Shown here piece after piece: positions 1,173-6,484 of a DNA stretch of 16,150 nt. Both the position numbers and the translations under genes were made by a program. The notes under the pieces are model-generated. The model was not told where the DNA came from and did not search any database. It saw only the letters and a list, made by a program, of their open reading frames with translations. Position 1 is the first letter of the stretch; each line of letters starts with the position of its first letter. This stretch comes from a virus: UHGV virus genome UHGV-0095173; one strand, 5' to 3'.

Positions 1173-1348
1173 GCTGCCACCTCCTGAATACGAGTAATAC
1201 GAACGTGCTTATAACCGCCTTTATTCGCCAGTAGTTGCGCAGTCGATTTAGCTGTTTCTGGACTGGTGCTAGTCATGGTGTAGTGAATGCCGACGGTGTT
1301 ACCGCGCTTGTTAACAGCGTATCCGTCGATCTGGAAGGTTTTACGCAT
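1169..1348 (-). CDS. hypothetical small protein (59 aa)
   Basis: Not in the ORF track. Hand translation: MRKTFQIDGYAVNKRGNTVGIHYTMTSTSPETAKSTAQLLANKGGYKHVRITRIQEVAA. ATG at 1348-1346 lies just downstream of the recombinase-like stop (1341-1343); its stop overlaps the next start (ATGA). Confidence 0.45.
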   Translation of the reverse strand: MRKTFQIDGYAVNKRGNTVGIHYTMTSTSPETAKSTAQLLANKGGYKHVRITRIQEVAA

Positions 1349-2219
1349 TTCCGACCTCCATTGCTAAACGGGACTGGATAGCTGCCGCTTTACTGCCTAA
1401 TTGCAGGTAAGTACGAGTTATCGCAGGGTTGCTATGACCCAGCATTTCAGAGGCCACTAATAGGCCCTGTTCGCCACCTGCGGACATGAGGTTAAAGGCG
1501 GCTATTTTGCGGCTTGAGTAGGCGCTCAGGCGCAATTTAGCGTTAATGAAACGGGTAAACCACGCCATGACGCCATGAAGTTTGCGCCAGATGGTTTGGC
1601 GAGTAACGCTACCTTCCAGACGTTGACAACGGTTACTTTCGATTTGAGAGCGGGAAAATACCAGGTCGTCCTCCACCAGATTCCGATCCTGACGGTCACG
1701 CAGCCGCTTGATAATGCCGGGGGGTAACTGTTTGGTGTCGTGCTTGACGTCAGCCTTAGCCACCAGCCCGAACACAATCGCCTGTTCTTCGTCGTTCATA
1801 TCGGCGGCCAGTTCATCACAGCCGATACTATCCCACTTCATGTAGGCGATATGGTCAGCGGCGAGCCGCGCGGCGTCCTTGCGCTGCTGGCGCACAATTT
1901 CAATACCTTTGCGGGTTGCCCGCGCTTCTGCGGCTTTGGTCTGTTTGGAAACGATAATTGTCGCCTGTCCAGTTTCCCAATTGATGCAGGAATAGCGCAG
2001 GTTGCAAACGTCGCTGGTACGCCAGCCGGTTACGGTCGCAATATCCCACCAGAGCAACACCCAATCGGGCTGTGTCTGCTGGATGCGCTCGCGTAGCTTG
2101 CGCTGCTCGTCACGGTCATAGACAGGGGTCATGGTGCGACTGCCCTTTGTGCTCGCCGCTTTAACGACATTGCCGCGCAGCTCGCGGGCTTTGGCTGTCA
2201 GAGTCTGGAGGTTAAACAT
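1341..2219 (-). CDS. tyrosine recombinase-fold protein (phage integrase family, catalytic domain, about 292 aa)
   Basis: C-terminal LGHSNPAITRTYL matches the tyrosine-recombinase box II signature (His and catalytic Tyr). Box I-like TGWRTSDVCNLRY. The usual HxxR appears as SSRK. Start placed at ATG 2219 (MFNLQ...) because GGAGGTG sits 4 nt upstream; the track's longer ORF begins at a TTG at 2312. Confidence 0.65.
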   Translation of the reverse strand: MFNLQTLTAKARELRGNVVKAASTKGSRTMTPVYDRDEQRKLRERIQQTQPDWVLLWWDIATVTGWRTSDVCNLRYSCINWETGQATIIVSKQTKAAEARATRKGIEIVRQQRKDAARLAADHIAYMKWDSIGCDELAADMNDEEQAIVFGLVAKADVKHDTKQLPPGIIKRLRDRQDRNLVEDDLVFSRSQIESNRCQRLEGSVTRQTIWRKLHGVMAWFTRFINAKLRLSAYSSRKIAAFNLMSAGGEQGLLVASEMLGHSNPAITRTYLQLGSKAAAIQSRLAMEVGNA

Positions 2220-2400
2220 GACGCACCTCCGGCACTGGCAGACGTGCGGCCAGAGACAAAATAAAGTGCGGCGCAAGGATGCGGCGGGCTTCGCGTTCGG
2301 TCGCAGCCTCAACGGACAGACGGCAAGGTTTGGCTTTTTTATCGTGGCGATTCAGCGCGAGAAAGCGCCAGGTGAATTTTGAGTGTGCGGATCTAGCCAT
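2212..2400 (-). CDS. hypothetical small protein (62 aa), first gene of the operon
   Basis: ORF track entry. AGGAG about 9 nt upstream of ATG 2400. Its stop overlaps the recombinase-like start (ATGTTTAA). Function unknown. Confidence 0.45.
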   Translation of the reverse strand: MARSAHSKFTWRFLALNRHDKKAKPCRLSVEAATEREARRILAPHFILSLAARLPVPEVRHV

Positions 2401-2720
2401 TTTTAGCGGCTCCTAGAACATATTGAAGGAGTCTCGCCAGATGCTGCTAAACATGGGTGGCGAGACGTGACGGGGTTAGCAGACTGGCGTTCTAGGAAAC
2501 CAGCAGGCGTTAAGCCTCCCCACCACGCCCCGCCATAAATCGGGGGTATGGTTGGTTTTCGGGCGTAAAAATACCGCTATACGGAAATCAGCGGCTACCC
2601 GCTAGAACGTTCAGGCTGCTAAACCCGGCACCCGTTTTGTGAGGTGCAAAATAATCATAACCACACTACCCCGTTAAGCGCAAGGGAAATATCCCCTGCG
2701 CCCACAATGCAAACTTGTGA

Positions 2721-3791
2721 TTAGTACCCGCGAGAAGCGTAAACTCGTGCCATGCCAGCCCAATGAGAGAAAAGAATTTCCCACTTAATTGGGTTGTAGG
2801 TAATACTTCCATCGACTGCGGCAGCATTCCATGCCCGATCAGAAATAGAGCTATCTTTAGCAGTTTTCCCCCATTCAACAATATCCCTTGCTAAAGCCTG
2901 TACACATGCTCGACTGACTACCTTTTCGTCAACGTACGCCCCAACATCAGAGCATGACTCCATACTCATGTTCAGGCTATTTTTAAGGGACTCCAGCCCG
3001 GCCACTGACATAAAGCGACGACCATTAGCGTATGCAACACCGTCATTCCTGATAGTGAACTTAACAGTGTGGAATGCGTCAACAATCATCCGCTGCTCTG
3101 GCGTCGGGTTCTGCCATAGCACAAGGTTAATCTCTCTCTCAGAAGCTATTGATTCTGCTTTCTCACGCTTAACTCGTGCATCCCGTTCTGCCTGGTATTG
3201 TTTTTGATTTTCATCATGAGCCTTTTGGTAACTAGAGGCTAATGCGTCTCTGTTTTTGGCAAATGCTGCAATGCTATTTTTGAAATCGCTTCTGCTAACC
3301 TTGTTTAACCCCATACTCCAGCGGTCATTTTCGTAATCATCATAAATGGCATCAACTTTTGCCGGATTACTCAGCACAGTCGCCAGATTAACCGGAATTT
3401 TAGCCATCTCGTCACTGATTCTCGCTACATGTTCGAAAGTCGATATAGAGCCAACTTCATGACTCCCATACTCATGATAAGCGGCATAAAAAATTGGAAT
3501 AGATTGAGGTTTTTCGTTCACTGACTTAATGATGCTTTTTTCATCACATGACTGTTCACCCCATTTGAAAACACTTTTCCCACCATTTTTGTATGTGTTG
3601 CAATCATCAATACCCAAACGAACCAGCGCATCCCATCCGGGCCGTTTCTTGTAATCCTCGCTCTTGACAACATGCATTGTGGTTAGGGCTTTCGCAGGAT
3701 CTAACTTGCCAGCGGTACAAGACACGATAGGAAAGGCCAGAGAAGCGCAGGCTGCTATCCTGAAAAGGCTCGTCAATCTTTCTTTTTTCAT
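2721..3791 (-). CDS. predicted lipoprotein (356 aa), cargo gene of unknown function
   Basis: N-terminus MKKERLTSLFRIAACASLAFPIVSC has a basic n-region, hydrophobic core and lipobox-like IVSC followed by T. Central charged, coiled-coil-like stretch (YQKAHDENQKQYQAERDARVKREKAES). Looks AT-richer than flanking phage genes by eye. No family recognised. Confidence 0.7.
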   Translation of the reverse strand: MKKERLTSLFRIAACASLAFPIVSCTAGKLDPAKALTTMHVVKSEDYKKRPGWDALVRLGIDDCNTYKNGGKSVFKWGEQSCDEKSIIKSVNEKPQSIPIFYAAYHEYGSHEVGSISTFEHVARISDEMAKIPVNLATVLSNPAKVDAIYDDYENDRWSMGLNKVSRSDFKNSIAAFAKNRDALASSYQKAHDENQKQYQAERDARVKREKAESIASEREINLVLWQNPTPEQRMIVDAFHTVKFTIRNDGVAYANGRRFMSVAGLESLKNSLNMSMESCSDVGAYVDEKVVSRACVQALARDIVEWGKTAKDSSISDRAWNAAAVDGSITYNPIKWEILFSHWAGMARVYASRGY

Positions 3792-3843
3792 CGTCCTAAT
3801 GCTCTTTCAAACCAAGAATGTAGGACATAGTAAATTGTGGTTA

Positions 3844-4170
3844 ATGGCAAGTCGATATAAAGGCCGGGTTATTGGCTTCGGTGCCAATATCATTTCTCCG
3901 AAATTTCATAACGCCTGTAATCGCTCGTTTCCCCATCTTGGGGACATTTCAAAACTGCGAATCAAAGTGCGAATGGAACTGCGAATTCGCAAAGAGAGAG
4001 CGCCGCTCAAAGCAGGCCGGATAAGGCTTCGCGGACATATTGCGAATGCGAATCCACCAGAAACGAAACGCGAATCACCCATAAACAAAACCGATACGCA
4101 GGGAGCGTACTGCCCGTATTCAATCGGCCGAAAAGTCAGCCGATTAAAATCATGCCCGGCTATCCCCTGA
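3844..4170 (+). pseudogene. terS-like relic: diverged inverted copy of the 5' part of the prophage small-terminase gene (possibly an intact 108-codon ORF)
   Basis: An 18-mer caccagaaacgaaacgcg at 4055-4072 is identical to the reverse complement of terS 11811-11828. TGCGAAT repeats at 3956-4075 mirror those at 11904-11958. The frame from ATG 3844 gives MASRYKGRVIGFGANIISPKFHNACNRSFPHLGDISKLRIK..., resembling TerS MAKPDWGELQQRFLSEHAKTGISPKEWCEAQGLNYSTAKRYIKIA. The repeat block is read in a different frame from terS and I found no convincing RBS. Confidence 0.3.
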
Positions 4171-4630
4171 AATTTCAGGAGATCGAGAGCCACCAGCAGA
4201 GAACCGTTCATGCCATCGGTAACTTGCAGCCCGAAGCTCAAATCTGAGCGTTGACCGCCAGCCAGAAGAAACCATTTTAAATCCCGCGCCTTCTCTTTGG
4301 ATGAACAGGGTTACTCCCCGTAATGCTGTGAACTGCCACGATGATTCGGGGTTGTGTTGCGCTGGCCTTTGAGTCCCGCACAAACACTGACCCACAAAAT
4401 TTTTGTAGGTGACTGGCCCTCTTGATGAGGTGCTGTTTTGCGTAACCCTTAATGAGTTGTGCAAAGGCTCAACCCTTTAAAAGGGTTGCCTAACCACCGG
4501 CGATAGTAATAACCGCCAACCTATGAACACTATGAACACCTTTGAGCATTTTTCTATAAACATTCCACTACTGCCCTATTTGATGCCTTTCTCTGGCTGG
4601 CCTGTGTAAGTTACCGTTGCTGGGAACTGA

Positions 4631-4668
4631 CAATAAAAAAGGCTTGCCCCTCTCAGGTAACAAGCCTT
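4631..4668 (-). terminator. intrinsic terminator downstream of alpA
   Basis: Minus strand: 8-bp stem AAGGCTTG / CAAGCCTT with a 14-nt loop followed by TTTTTATTG, about 20 nt past the alpA stop. Confidence 0.5.
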
Positions 4669-4685
4669 GTCTATCGCTCTGGATC

Positions 4686-4898
4686 TCACTCACTACAGAT
4701 TCCGCGCTTTTGGCTCTGTCTTCCGATCCACGCCTCCACCTCATCGCGATACCAGCAATTGCGGCCGCCAACTTTGAAGGGCATCGGAAAGCCGTTCCCC
4801 TCATCCTTCAGAAATTCATAGAACGCAGAATCAGAACGGTAGCGTAGACGGGCTTTAACTTCGACTTTGAGCAAAATATCACTGTTAGATATGGACAT
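4686..4898 (-). CDS. alpA: AlpA-family transcriptional regulator / excisionase-like protein (70 aa)
   Basis: GFPMPFKVGGRNCWYRDEVEAWI matches the AlpA signature (FP-P-K-GGR-W-EVE-WI). GAGG RBS 5 nt upstream of ATG 4898. Sits next to a P4-type integrase. Confidence 0.85.
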   Translation of the reverse strand: MSISNSDILLKVEVKARLRYRSDSAFYEFLKDEGNGFPMPFKVGGRNCWYRDEVEAWIGRQSQKRGICSE

Positions 4899-4973
4899 AA
4901 AAACCTCATTATATATTCGATATAATTATATATGATTTGAATAAAAAAAACGCATTCCGGTTAGCTTTGGGCA

Positions 4974-4999
4974 TAAAAAAAGCTGGCTTAAAGCCAGCT
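4974..4999 (-). terminator. intrinsic terminator downstream of int
   Basis: Perfect inverted repeat AGCTGGCTT / AAGCCAGCT (4981-4999) followed on the minus strand by a run of 7 T, about 40 nt past the int stop. Confidence 0.6.
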
Positions 5000-5040
5000 A
5001 TACCCGTTTGAAATCATGATTATCCAGAAATGGATGTGCC

Positions 5041-6270
5041 TTACACAACCAGCCTCAAGCCCTTATCGCCGCTGGTCTCCAGTATTTCGCCACACTCTGC
5101 GGCCTCGATAAAGTCCCCCCACCATTGCATTAAAACCCGGCGTTTTTCCAGATAGTCGCTACGGTTATAAACATTTCGAATCGCATCGGCGCTTTTGTGA
5201 GCGAGTGCAGCCTCAATCACATCAGGGTTGAACCCCTCGTCATTTAAAACTGTAGATGCCAACGCCCTGAACCCATGAGGAACAATCAGCCCTTTAAACG
5301 ACGTTTTGTGTATCCCGGCCTGAGTCGCACAGCGTGAGATCGGCTTATTTTCTTTTCGCCATGAGGGGAAAACATAATCGCAGCGCTTCCACTTTTCGGC
5401 CTCTTTAAGCACGTTTATAGCCTGGCTCGATAATGGGACTACGTGGGGGCGCTTTCCTTTCATCCGGCTTGCAGGGATTTGCCAGATTGAGTTATCAAAA
5501 TCAATCTCATTCCAGAGAGCGCCGCCAGCCTCCGAAGGCCGGACCATCGTAATGATCTGGAATAATAATGCCAGCTTTGATGGCTCCCATAAGCTCAACT
5601 CGTTCCATGCGCTTAAAAATTCGGGCAACCGCTCTTTCTGTAAAGTCGCTCTTGGCTCGTTTTTTTCAGCCGGGAATGCTTTACCAATTTTCGATAGCGG
5701 GTTGTGCTCAATAACCCCAATGTTTACCGCATAATCCATTATGGCGTTGATGGTAATAACCATTTTCGTAAGCGTTGATGGCCTTTCCCTGAAAGGTTTA
5801 AAAGCCTGAATAGTATCGGCTGCGTTTATTTTATGTACCGTGGTATGCCTAAAAATCGTGGAAAGATGCTTCAACGTCACATTGTGCGATTCAAGCGTGT
5901 TGCTTCTCGCACCTTCTTTAATCTTGATTTTTAGCCATTCATCGGCAACGGCCTGAAATGACTGCGCGTACATTTTACGCTGTTCATTCCTGGCATCTTT
6001 TTTGACTTCGTTCGGATCTATCCCTCGCGCTACCATACGGCGCAGTTTCGAACGTTCCTCCCTCGCTTCGGACAAAGTAAACTCCGGGTATCGTCCAATA
6101 GTATAGGTTTGTCTCTTCTTCGTTACCGGGTGTACATACCGAAAACGCCATGACTTACCGCCCCGGCTTGTGATGTAAAGCAACAAACCGAAACCATCGT
6201 GCAAACTGAAATCCTTGCCCTGTGCCTTCGCGCTTTTCACTTCGACGCTAGTTAGTGGCCTAACAATCAT
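5041..6270 (-). CDS. int: tyrosine-type site-specific integrase, P4-like (409 aa)
   Basis: N-terminal arm-binding-type domain (GKSWRFRYVHPVTKKRQTYTIGRYPEFTLSEAREE). C-terminal catalytic region with HGFRALAST and downstream Tyr (RNVYNRSDY). GAGG RBS 7 nt upstream of ATG 6270. Confidence 0.95.
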   Translation of the reverse strand: MIVRPLTSVEVKSAKAQGKDFSLHDGFGLLLYITSRGGKSWRFRYVHPVTKKRQTYTIGRYPEFTLSEAREERSKLRRMVARGIDPNEVKKDARNEQRKMYAQSFQAVADEWLKIKIKEGARSNTLESHNVTLKHLSTIFRHTTVHKINAADTIQAFKPFRERPSTLTKMVITINAIMDYAVNIGVIEHNPLSKIGKAFPAEKNEPRATLQKERLPEFLSAWNELSLWEPSKLALLFQIITMVRPSEAGGALWNEIDFDNSIWQIPASRMKGKRPHVVPLSSQAINVLKEAEKWKRCDYVFPSWRKENKPISRCATQAGIHKTSFKGLIVPHGFRALASTVLNDEGFNPDVIEAALAHKSADAIRNVYNRSDYLEKRRVLMQWWGDFIEAAECGEILETSGDKGLRLVV

Positions 6271-6484
6271 TCAACACCTCTCTGGCTACCATGTAATGCA
6301 AACGGCGCATGATTCTCTTTCTAGTCCCTCATGTACCGAATCAAAGCGAAATCCGGCGAATAAATCCGCACATGTTCGGAGTGTCATTTTTATGGTTCAG
6401 GCCAGTAACGCCGTATGATTCCGAACGATAACGCACTGATTAATAGATATTAGTTGCATAAGGTACAGATATGCAGTCATTGGA

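Follow-up and report, generated by a model that had tools for sequence, protein, structure and literature searches.

The closest described relatives of the locus analysed here are the immI regions of phages P1 and P7 (c4, icd, ant1/2; RF01695; Citron & Schuster 1990), in which the antisense RNA C4 is co-transcribed with its own target, the immunity region of the satellite P4 (CI RNA, seqA, seqC), the IsrK RNA of Gifsy-1 with STnc1160 (RF01394; Hershko-Shalev et al. 2016) and the c4-a1b1 motif (RF03163; Weinberg et al. 2010). Full repression of ant needs C4 (PMC8198154, citing Citron & Schuster 1990), and RNase P accepts both C4 and P4 CI as substrates (PMC5499578). The CI/seqA/seqC system and the alternative structures of IsrK have been described (PMC4825925), and Rfam matches to C4 and isrK have already been reported in PICIs and in helper-embedded PICIs (PMC10111431).

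We analysed positions 2401-2720 of a 16,150-nt stretch of viral DNA (the window), an intergenic region that lies between the stop codon of a 356-aa minus-strand ORF (2721) and the ATG of a 62-aa minus-strand ORF (2400). An original prediction, based on the density of symmetric motifs, had proposed that this region holds either repressor/activator operators or a structured 5' leader controlling the operon. The second possibility was right in outline: these positions make up the predicted transcribed leader that controls the minus-strand operon, and the motifs are parts of a known phage RNA switch, namely a leader-derived C4 antisense RNA and its pairing sites. We consider it highly probable (approximately 0.88) that 2401-2720 is the leader of a P1 immI-type RNA immunity module of a PICI-like satellite. 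The earlier reading had overlooked the gene for C4, the predicted promoter and the leader of the IsrK kind. The locus is an ordinary fresh copy of the known system, in a phage satellite; its features are collected in Table 1.

Table 1. Coordinates of features of the leader, the operon and the satellite (window positions)
Feature	Position	Strand	Description
Predicted -35 hexamer	2678-2683	-	TTGCGC; aligned with the -35 of P1 P51b (record name P1c4)
Predicted -10 hexamer	2654-2659	-	TATGAT; aligned with P51b -10 TATAGT; spacer 18 nt
IsrK/SeqA-like leader module	2567-2647	-	5' stem-loop 2647-2628, a1 hairpin 2627-2612, b1, terminator-like hairpin and U-run
Site a1	2616-2622	-	RNA UUAGCAG in a1 hairpin loop; complementary to a'; aligned with P1 a1
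Site b1	2602-2609	-	RNA CGUUCUAG; complementary to b'; aligned with P1 b1
Terminator-like hairpin	2567-2595	-	CCGCU/AGCGG, 11-nt loop, then AUUUUU; putative terminator function
C4 antisense RNA gene	2453-2540	-	RF01695 match, fold, P1/P7 identity; mature RNA predicted 2534-2456
b' element, C4 hairpin loop	2488-2497	-	RNA UCCUAGAACG; 12-nt loop of the Rfam consensus; complementary to b1 and b2
a' element, single-stranded C4 junction	2476-2482	-	RNA CUGCUAA, P7-type allele; complementary to a1 and a2
a2 stem-loop (9-bp hairpin)	2431-2466	-	5' arm 2466-2458, 3' arm 2439-2431, a2 at apex
Site a2	2450-2444	-	RNA UUAGCAG, apex of the 9-bp stem-loop
Site b2	2410-2419	-	RNA GUUCUAGGAG; overlaps AGGAG Shine-Dalgarno (2414-2410) of the Icd-like gene
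Icd-like protein, 62 aa, first operon gene	2212-2400	-	NCBIfam NF033153 phage_ICD_like, 79.7 bits vs cutoff 25
Tyrosine-recombinase-like protein, 292 aa, second gene	1341-2219	-	Pfam PF00589, E = 3.4e-11, partial match; PHROG 216 (integrase family)
Weak AlpA/Xis-like ORF	4686-4898		Satellite gene
Integrase	5041-6270		Satellite gene

The C4 RNA gene and its pairing sites

The Rfam model of C4 antisense RNA is matched from end to end (positions 1-87 of 87) by the minus strand at 2540-2453; the score of 75 bits exceeds the gathering score, which is 45 (E = 2e-13). The segment 2443-2628 shares 79-83% DNA identity over 186 nt with the c4 region of phages P1 and P7. The C4 fold (-44 kcal/mol, z = -4.46) has the same secondary structure as in these phages, with a closing stem followed by an ACC overhang as in P1. 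The ends of the predicted mature RNA were set by homology to the 77-nt P1 C4, with the misc_RNA ends taken from the P1 record. A tRNA scan gave neither tRNA nor tmRNA.

With one small correction, the repeated boxes described in the original prediction are present as stated. TCCTAGAA(C) at 2411-2419 and (G)TTCTAGGA at 2489-2497 are complementary without mismatch over 9 nt, a third copy of CTAGAAC occurs at 2602-2608, and the inverted CTGCTAA (TTAGCAG) is found at 2476-2482. GCTGCTAAAC indeed occurs twice, with one copy at 2443-2452 as claimed and the second at 2615-2624, not 2614-2623. In the terms of the P1 record, the TCCTAGAA and TTCTAGGA boxes, as read on the plus strand, are b2 and b', CTAGAAC is b1 and the CTGCTAA boxes are a2, a' and a1; by alignment, every box falls one-to-one on a P1-annotated a1, b1, a', b', a2 or b2 site. 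The order of parts is also that of P1 and P7 (promoter, a1, b1, c4 with b' and a', a2, b2 on the RBS, icd-like), and the a allele, CUGCUAA, is identical to that of P7, whereas the b allele is CUAGAAC in place of CACUAAC (P1) or CACAAUC (P7).

From the single sequence alone, a chance origin of these motifs is excluded only modestly: 17 of 500 dinucleotide shuffles (3.4%) contained a perfect inverted repeat at least as long as this one (9 bp or more, loop up to 40 nt), and 17/500 contained at least two 7-mer families with three or more copies each. We accept the motifs as real because the boxes and the hairpin are kept, with compensatory changes, in dozens of related loci, as came out of the comparison with homologous regions that had been proposed as a check.

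Within the locus, b1 is a perfect 8-nt complement of 2488-2495 and the complementarity of a1 to the C4 region reaches 17/20 nt, while a':a2 comprises 7 bp and b':b2 nine Watson-Crick pairs and one G-U pair covering AGGAG. The aligned P1 b2 carries the record entry 'repression of icd ant translation'. Alleles were compared in 58 distinct relatives, among which we counted 18 b' alleles and 2 a' alleles. An exact complement of b' of at least 7 nt was present at b1 in 58/58 and at b2 in 57/58 (the remaining locus runs off its contig), and an exact complement of a' was present at both a1 and a2 in all 58. Pairing statistics were taken from a 34-sequence alignment, in which a'/a2 together with b'/b2 were 99.2% paired with 145 double-change cells, compared with 30-47% for slid controls, and a1/a' together with b1/b' were 97.5% paired. 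Taken singly, a1 and a' covary and are 100% paired in relatives, and b'/b2 pairing amounts to 98.6% across the 18 alleles, with G-U pairs tolerated at site edges. Boxes that vary freely while complementarity is kept across three copies argue for RNA pairing and not for a protein bound to a fixed operator. On the minus strand of the window and of a 28.8-kb locus (L001), the only places where a b site comes after an a site are a1/b1 and a2/b2, and no further C4 targets in the helper prophage were found in either sequence.

These data bear directly on the proposal that a repressor or activator, for instance AlpA or one of the small operon proteins, binds the boxes and the hairpin as DNA operators at the operon promoter. 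In its favour, inverted and direct repeats cluster between genes, ahead of an operon, and a weak AlpA/Xis-like ORF is present. However, the boxes lie inside the transcript, downstream of the conserved promoter, with one copy of each within a high-scoring structured RNA gene; their sequences are hypervariable (18 b alleles), yet copies far apart stay complementary, in part through G-U pairs, which are sensible only in RNA. Moreover, the P1 record lists the homologous sites as binding sites for C4 RNA, and the P1 C1 operator is absent, its consensus ATTGCTCTAATAAATTT having no match at up to 3 mismatches in the whole window. Based on the covariation pattern and the G-U pairs we rejected the protein-operator reading, which we now regard as barely credible. 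The boxes are RNA-RNA pairing sites for a C4 RNA that is encoded in cis and predicted to act in trans, and the EMSA with AlpA proposed earlier would tell little.

The predicted promoter and the IsrK/SeqA-like leader

A consensus scan for promoters and terminators returned no promoter at threshold and a single weak, irrelevant terminator-like site within coding sequence. The promoter prediction that had been suggested as a check thus gave nothing by consensus, whereas alignment to P1 P51b gives a promoter, weak by consensus (-35 matches 3/6, spacer 18 nt). The TTGC/TTGAC column is conserved among satellite relatives that have unrelated sequence further upstream, and sequence upstream of the -35 hexamer is likewise unrelated to that of P1 and P7. 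The match to the isrK model begins at 2647, 7 nt downstream of the -10 hexamer, and we infer a transcription start near G2647. In contrast to P1, where the C1-repressor operator Op51 governs an upstream promoter, there is no C1 operator and no second promoter P51a.

The leader covers the full Rfam isrK model at 44.6 bits (E = 1.8e-8), a score that does not reach the gathering score of 50; P1 and P7 score 35-44 bits, also below threshold, and the P88-like phage L124 passes with 64 bits. Across 34 relatives its helices remain 93-99% paired and show compensatory changes. The isrK model puts its terminator at the 2567-2595 hairpin, of which the GCGG and the T-run are invariant in the 34 relatives and the CCGC/GCGG stem is conserved. 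The efficiency of this terminator-like hairpin is nevertheless doubtful, because its stem has only 5-6 bp around an 11-nt loop, and the terminator scan made no call there. A competing hairpin at 2604-2589 takes in the 3' end of b1, and one of its pairs covaries with the b1 allele (UA 13, AU 10, GC 5). The c4-a1b1 family, which likewise comprises a 5' stem-loop followed by the a1 hairpin, ahead of c4, was tried and rejected: the leader scores 18.3 bits against a gathering score of 46.7 and against 51-55 bits for P1 and P7, its 5' stem-loop sequence being of the isrK/P88 type, and it cannot be filed there.

The conserved terminator-like hairpin and U-run between b1 and c4, in a leader of the IsrK/SeqA kind, together with the competing hairpin, which overlaps the 3' end of b1 and varies in step with the b1 allele, are what one would expect if the locus acted mainly as P4 does. 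By that mechanism (summarised in PMC4825925 and PMC10111431), C4/CI pairing with a1/b1 (= seqA) and a2/b2 (= seqC) would cause a premature stop at the leader terminator and the block of the RBS would be secondary. The host element is a satellite, as is P4, and the two loci share complementary sites on both sides (upstream and downstream) of a small RNA from the leader of a satellite replication operon and, as predicted here, the processing of this RNA, the RNase P substrate class and immunity by silencing of the element's own early operon. On the other hand, the top sequence identity is with P1 c4, b2 sits exactly on the Shine-Dalgarno sequence as in P1, and the terminator stem is weak; a stop upstream of c4 would also end C4 production, which suits autoregulation and not the main block of the operon. 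Further, the P4 outcome of premature transcription termination concerns a region within the eta/kil coding frame, whereas the leader described here is non-coding. We regard a mainly P4-type termination as possible, although on this evidence unlikely.

The short terminated leader RNA (2647 to approximately 2567) might instead act in trans on the long transcript and turn operon translation on, as IsrK does, either by opening cis pairing of a1:a' and b1:b' or by titrating C4. The E-value of the isrK match would fit this, as would the predicted minimum-free-energy fold of the leader, in which a1:a' and b1:b' are paired in cis and which, among relatives, alternates with the C4 fold; this alternation resembles that of IsrK structures A and B, which have been demonstrated by experiment (PMC4825925). 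The likeness to Gifsy-1 extends to the 5' stem-loop, the middle hairpin and the terminator-like hairpin (Rho-independent type) of 2647-2567, to the C4/CI-like processed RNA that follows, and to the prediction of two alternative global folds with the leader pairing downstream RNA in cis. Nevertheless, the isrK score stays below the Rfam threshold, the C4 region has no overlapping ORF comparable to orf45 in Gifsy-1, the downstream gene is icd-like and not anrP, and the fold predictions are purely thermodynamic. IsrK is an activator, whereas the net effect of the P1 locus is repression, and we consider IsrK-type activation rather improbable here.

The 9-bp hairpin carrying a2

The inverted repeat formed by GTCTCGCCA (2431-2439) and TGGCGAGAC (2458-2466) is, as originally described, perfect with an 18-nt loop, and 16 nt separate the end of the hairpin from the downstream AGGAG Shine-Dalgarno sequence (2414-2410). 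The stem around a2 is longer than that of P1 (9 bp vs 5+3 bp). When folded alone the hairpin has an energy of -18.8 kcal/mol (z = -4.97), and 0/200 shuffles were equally stable. The C4 closing stem is more stable than the competing a2 hairpin. In the 34 relatives the hairpin stem is 86.8% paired with two CG<->UA compensatory pairs, and at least seven different arm sequences are still complementary in other lineages, although the covariation comes from few independent lineages.

An intrinsic terminator or a functionless chance inverted repeat would be another explanation of such a hairpin, and the latter gains something from the 3.4% of shuffles of the region that contain a perfect repeat of this length. 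The hairpin is, however, followed by UCCUUCAAUAUG, without a U-run, and is absent from the terminator scan list; lacking the U-run, it was rejected as a terminator. Against chance, the stem is kept in P1, in P88-like phages and in several satellite lineages, where the arms differ yet remain complementary and a2 is always apical. Both explanations together are very improbable. Nor is the hairpin a stand-alone operator, as one of its arms is the 3' strand of the C4 closing stem and its loop carries a2.

Because the strand 2466-2458 is common to the hairpin (5' arm) and to the C4 closing stem, the hairpin and the C4 fold are mutually exclusive, and both are kept by compensatory changes in at least seven lineages. 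It is conceivable, and we offer this as speculation that is more probably wrong than right, that the leader is a bistable RNA which splits transcripts between two fates. In fold I the transcript would be a C4 precursor and RNase P substrate; in fold II it would be a self-masked mRNA that shows a2 in the loop, with a1:a' and b1:b' paired in cis. If this were true, read-through from the late operon of the helper could shift the C4-to-target ratio and derepress the satellite. The new part would be only the tie between the a2 hairpin, C4 maturation and helper read-through, as the alternative-structure mechanism has already been shown for IsrK.

The satellite operon and its proposed silencing

Downstream of the leader, the Icd-like protein shares 40% identity over 35 aa with P1 Icd (BLASTP E = 8e-5), and the RefSeq annotation of a 99.9% identical locus agrees on this gene. 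The recombinase-like ATG (2219), as read from the sequence, overlaps the icd-like stop by 8 nt, a gene overlap that makes translational coupling between the two genes likely; in P1, too, the gene that follows overlaps the end of icd. A TOPRIM/DUF927 primase is found downstream in L001. The position of ant1/ant2, which in P1 are translationally coupled to icd, is taken here by a 292-aa Phage_integrase-like gene followed by a primase operon. Since the gene after icd is not ant and the C1 operator is lacking, the biological output therefore differs from that of P1.

The region is part of a PICI-like satellite that lies within a late gene of a prophage. As in helper-embedded PICIs (Tommasini et al. 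2023), there are an integrase, a weak AlpA/Xis-like ORF, a primase and a co-oriented insertion in a late gene; head genes on the strand of the satellite lie to either side, and a CTGTACC core in the 5' end of a Gp24-family gene marks the point where the insertion splits this gene. In comparison with P1 and P7, in which immI resides on the P1 plasmid prophage, the module is found here in a chromosomal satellite within a lambdoid prophage.

We propose that a sigma-70 promoter (-35 at 2683-2678, -10 at 2659-2654) would give rise to a minus-strand transcript from near 2647, in which the IsrK/SeqA-like leader would form first and part of the transcripts would probably stop at the terminator-like hairpin. 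Transcripts that read through would hold the C4 RNA (approximately 2534-2456), a tRNA-acceptor-like hairpin, and by homology to P1 its 5' end would be cut by RNase P and its 3' end trimmed. The location of C4 and its target on the same strand, the P51b-aligned promoter and the closing stem with its ACC overhang are consistent with this predicted co-transcription and release. Mature C4 would show b' in a hairpin loop and a' in a single-stranded junction, such that in trans a' may pair with a2 at the tip of the 9-bp stem-loop and b' with b2, through 10 pairs over AGGAG. This pairing is expected to block icd-like translation, and the recombinase-like gene and the rest of the operon, up to the terminal TOPRIM/DUF927 primase, would go down with it through lost translational coupling and Rho-dependent polarity as in P1. 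The net effect would be that the early/replication operon of the satellite is kept off. As for a1/b1, C4 binding there may favour the upstream terminator and so provide autoregulation, as P4 CI does at seqA; alternatively, as a short RNA or in cis, a1/b1 may sequester a' and b', as in IsrK structure A. Both the RNase P processing and the Rho-dependent polarity of P1 are reportedly supported by the 1992 work of Biere, Citron and Schuster. For these two steps we relied on the P1 GenBank annotation and on secondary citations (PMC5499578, PMC8198154 and PMC4825925).

Published work already covers the system, its Rfam families and the occurrence of the system in PICIs and in helper-embedded PICIs, and the current understanding is unchanged. 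For C4 allele diversity in phage-plasmids we found no relevant literature. Cumulatively, a 320-bp region that is blank in RefSeq holds an RNA gene and its targets, and a supposed intergenic operator cluster is now fully explained. With b' = CUAGAAC and an a' of the P7 type, the locus contributes one more immunity-specificity allele to a combinatorial set of 18 b and at least four a alleles common to P1-like phage-plasmids, P88-like phages and PICI-like satellites, and it is probably this set that decides which of these elements cross-repress one another.

C4 antisense RNA and its complementary sites

A whole-window Rfam scan produced a single match above threshold, C4 antisense RNA (RF01695), which lies at 2540-2453 on the minus strand, spans the full-length model and reaches 75 bits (gathering score 45; E = 2e-13). 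In a BLAST search of phage records, window 2443-2628 matched the c4 regions of P1, P7 and P1-like elements at 79-83% identity. The P1 RefSeq record gives the order promoter P51b (P1c4), a1, b1, a 77-nt C4 RNA, a2, b2, whose note names repression of icd ant translation, and then icd; on alignment of the window with P1 and P7, each box named in the original prediction falls on one P1-annotated feature. By homology with the annotated ends of P1 C4, the mature RNA is predicted at 2534-2456; folded alone, C4 reaches -44 kcal/mol (z = -4.46). Throughout the window and L001, the 28.8-kb locus of E. coli ABWA45 that is 99.9% identical to it, the only minus-strand pairs in which an a site precedes a b site are a1/b1 and a2/b2. 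We consider it highly probable (about 0.9) that the leader is a C4-type module.

Reading window 2100-3100 on both strands, together with a repeat finder and exact motif searches, recovered all the predicted motifs; of the two copies of GCTGCTAAAC, the first lies where it had been placed and the second is displaced by one base. The leader is indeed intergenic, flanked by two minus-strand ORFs, one of 356 aa ending at 2721 and one of 62 aa starting at 2400. The window sequence alone gives moderate statistics, the 9-bp inverted repeat and the two triplicated 7-mer families each being found in 17/500 shuffles.

Features of the leader and arm sequences of the a2 hairpin
Feature	Position (strand)	Sequence	Remark
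-35	2683-2678 (-)	TTGCGC	from alignment
-10	2659-2654 (-)	TATGAT	aligned with annotated P1 P51b -10 TATAGT
5' stem-loop	2647-2628		isrK-like part
a1 hairpin, then b1			isrK-like part
a1	2622-2616 (-)	RNA UUAGCAG	upstream leader
b1	2609-2602 (-)	RNA CGUUCUAG	upstream leader
Conserved hairpin, then AUUUUU	2595-2567	CCGCU/AGCGG	enclosed by outer helix
b'	2497-2488 (-)	RNA UCCUAGAACG	C4 hairpin loop
a'	2482-2476 (-)	RNA CUGCUAA	C4 single-stranded junction
a2	2450-2444 (-)	RNA UUAGCAG	3' of C4
b2	2419-2410 (-)	RNA GUUCUAGGAG	over AGGAG Shine-Dalgarno of ORF starting at 2400
Inverted repeat	2431-2439 / 2458-2466	GTCTCGCCA / TGGCGAGAC	9 bp, 18-nt loop
Inverted boxes	2411-2419 / 2489-2497	TCCTAGAAC / GTTCTAGGA	perfect complement over 9 nt
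Repeated box	2413 and 2602	CTAGAAC	copies
Repeated box	2443-2452 and 2615-2624	GCTGCTAAAC	two copies
Inverted box	2476-2482	TTAGCAG	
Arms 5' / 3', window type		GUCUCGCCA / UGGCGAGAC	
Arms 5' / 3', P88-like		CUCGCCA / UGGUGAG	
Arms 5' / 3', L184		CUCACCA / UGGUGAG	
Arms 5' / 3', L216		CCACCACC / GGUGGUGG	
Arms 5' / 3', P1		CCUGC..ACC / GGU..GCAGG	
Arms 5' / 3', L051		ACCACCC / GGGUGGU	
Arms 5' / 3', L100		CCGCC / GGCGG	

Covariation and allele diversity of the pairing sites

A pattern scan of viral contigs yielded 120 loci with 58 distinct 258-nt c4 regions, which carry 18 b' loop sequences; a' occurs in them as two alleles, the P1 form CUGUCAA and the P7 form CUGCUAA. The b' alleles are matched by a perfect complement, 7 nt or longer, at b1 in 58/58 and at b2 in 57/58, the remaining locus leaving its contig, while the a' alleles are exactly complemented at both a1 and a2 in 58/58. 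In A2, an alignment of 34 related sequences, 99.2% of cells are paired for a':a2 plus b':b2 with 145 double-change cells (slid controls 30-47%), and 97.5% for a1:a' plus b1:b' with 141 (slid controls 24-38%). Since the box sequence is hypervariable and yet three-way complementarity is maintained, the data argue for RNA-RNA recognition. The original prediction had read the boxes as operators for proteins or as part of a structured 5' leader; varying sequence with persisting RNA complementarity is the opposite of what operators would be expected to show, and the G-U pairs in A2 lie at the site edges, so that the operator explanation was rejected. The motifs are functional and form part of a long-known RNA immunity system, not protein operators.

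The a allele of the window is P7-type; its b allele, CUAGAAC, is unlike that of P1 and that of P7 and within our sample recurs only in the satellite-type loci L091 and L118. Among the c4 regions of L004-L123 and L125-L216, viewed beside window 2488-2497 and 2476-2482, the specificity sites are combinatorial: P1-like phage-plasmids, P88-like Peduoviridae and satellites carry at least four a alleles (CUGUCAA, CUGCUAA, CUGCGAA from P88-like phages, GUCUCAA from L184) and 18 b' alleles in shuffled combinations, and every allele has its matching a1/b1 and a2/b2 sites except in L165, which has one a1 mismatch to a'. We found no catalogue of C4 a/b allele diversity in the literature.

Predicted promoter, isrK-like leader and alternative folds

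When the sequences preceding a1 in 16 satellite-type loci, P1 and P7 were aligned, two hexamers stood out as conserved amid otherwise unrelated sequence. The spacer is 18 nt in the window compared with 17 nt in P1 P51b, the -35 lying one base further upstream. The predicted leader promoter was not called by a consensus scanner and is thus weak by consensus. Permissive Rfam matching placed isrK (RF01394) at 2647-2567 with 44.6 bits (E = 1.8e-8), just below the gathering score of 50, and gave a weak c4-a1b1 match (18.3 bits); P1 and P7 behave similarly to the window. One P88-like phage, which has 37 nt in common with the window leader, scores 64 bits for isrK and, after it, 83 bits for C4; its a allele is a third one. 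These 37 nt (2612-2648, the 5' stem-loop and a1) are 95-97% identical to P88-like phages (Xuanwuvirus; L124 1462-1536), where the counterpart lies inside a CDS labelled 'transcriptional regulator' or 'ash family protein'; as Rfam calls isrK and C4 in the same stretch, that CDS annotation overlaps RNA genes.

A competing hairpin at 2604-2589 takes in the final b1 bases, and the identity of one base pair in it tracks the b1 allele (UA 13, AU 10, GC 5). This suggests that formation of the conserved, terminator-like CCGCU/AGCGG hairpin could be promoted when C4 binds b1, which would resemble the action of P4 CI at seqA (PMC4825925, PMC10111431).

Given the mature C4 ends taken from P1, the 5' arm of the 9-bp hairpin (2466-2458) coincides with the final 9 nt on the 3' strand of C4's closing stem, the discriminator-like A among them; the 3' arm (2439-2431) lies within the downstream mRNA, and a2 occupies the apex of the hairpin. 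The hairpin can hence not coexist with the C4 fold. Folded alone, the hairpin reaches -18.8 kcal/mol (z = -4.97); its pairing across A2 stands at 86.8%, against 21-58% in slid controls, and includes two CG<->UA compensatory pairs. A second scan yielded 100 stretches with 24 distinct a2 neighbourhoods, and in 24/24 of these a stem-loop carries a2 at its tip. Its arms vary by lineage with complementarity retained, and together these observations rule out a chance repeat. The a1 site too is displayed in a hairpin loop. In the minimum-free-energy fold of the full leader, a1:a' and b1:b' pair in cis and the hairpin replaces the C4 closing stem; among relatives the predicted optimum alternates between this cis-paired fold and the C4 fold, paralleling alternative structures A and B demonstrated experimentally at the homologous IsrK locus (PMC4825925). 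We infer that the hairpin displays a2 so that a' can contact it through the loop, and it may have a role in a conformational choice of C4 maturation or mRNA fate. Directly 3' of the hairpin, CUCCU (2427-2431) is complementary to the AGGAG Shine-Dalgarno (2410-2414) and paired with it in the predicted leader fold; this possible anti-SD is retained in satellite-type relatives (GAGACUCC), not in P1.

The downstream operon and its host element

The ORF starting at 2400 is Icd-like (NCBIfam NF033153, 79.7 bits against a cutoff of 25), with 40% identity to P1 Icd over 35 aa, and the next gene overlaps its stop by 8 nt. Whereas P1 has ant at this position, the window has a tyrosine-recombinase-like gene (1341-2219, 292 aa) whose Phage_integrase match in Pfam is only partial (stretch 43-115), a second recombinase-like gene besides the 409-aa integrase; other satellite relatives have unrelated small ORFs there. 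No C1 operator was found in the window. In the 99.9% identical ABWA45 locus the operon runs on through small ORFs to a TOPRIM/DUF927 primase.

Most likely, regulation proceeds by C4 processing, Shine-Dalgarno occlusion and operon silencing. A leader transcript from about 2647 would yield C4 through RNase P, of which C4 and P4 CI are substrates (PMC5499578). By pairing with a2 and b2, C4 would occlude the Shine-Dalgarno of the icd-like gene, and the loss of its translation would abolish coupled translation; this translational block is probably the primary step. Rho-dependent termination of the untranslated operon mRNA would then be probable, as Biere, Citron and Schuster reportedly described for P1 in 1992. 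The net result would be silencing of the satellite replication operon, and a1 and b1 may serve autoregulation or sequestration.

Upstream of the leader lie a 409-aa integrase (5041-6270) and a weak AlpA/Xis-like ORF (4686-4898), and the element is flanked by phage head genes on the same strand. The island splits a Gp24-family 'structural cement protein' gene at its 5' end, with a CTGTACC core, as judged from the phage frame ATGACTGCATATCTGTACC (6479-6461, minus), which resumes as ...CCTGTACCGGATGCCTG at the island's far end (ABWA45, L001 5780-5860). The element is thus a PICI-like satellite inserted, in the same orientation, into the head-gene cluster of a prophage (window 5041-6480), a configuration matching the helper-embedded PICIs of Tommasini et al. 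2023 (PMC10111431). The 356-aa ORF adjoining the leader (2721-3791) has no Pfam, NCBIfam or PHROG match and sits where PICIs have their variable 'Bro zone'. Compared with the ABWA45 locus, the window has ~282 extra bases somewhere between this ORF and the integrase (2950-5041), and gene coordinates left of 1341 are offset by ~110 nt; the two islands are therefore related but not identical.

Rfam C4 and isrK profiles have already matched several PICIs and helper-embedded PICIs, where they were read as immunity RNAs (PMC10111431), so a C4-type system has previously been reported in this class of element. To this already known RNA immunity system, the module in the window brings a new b specificity.
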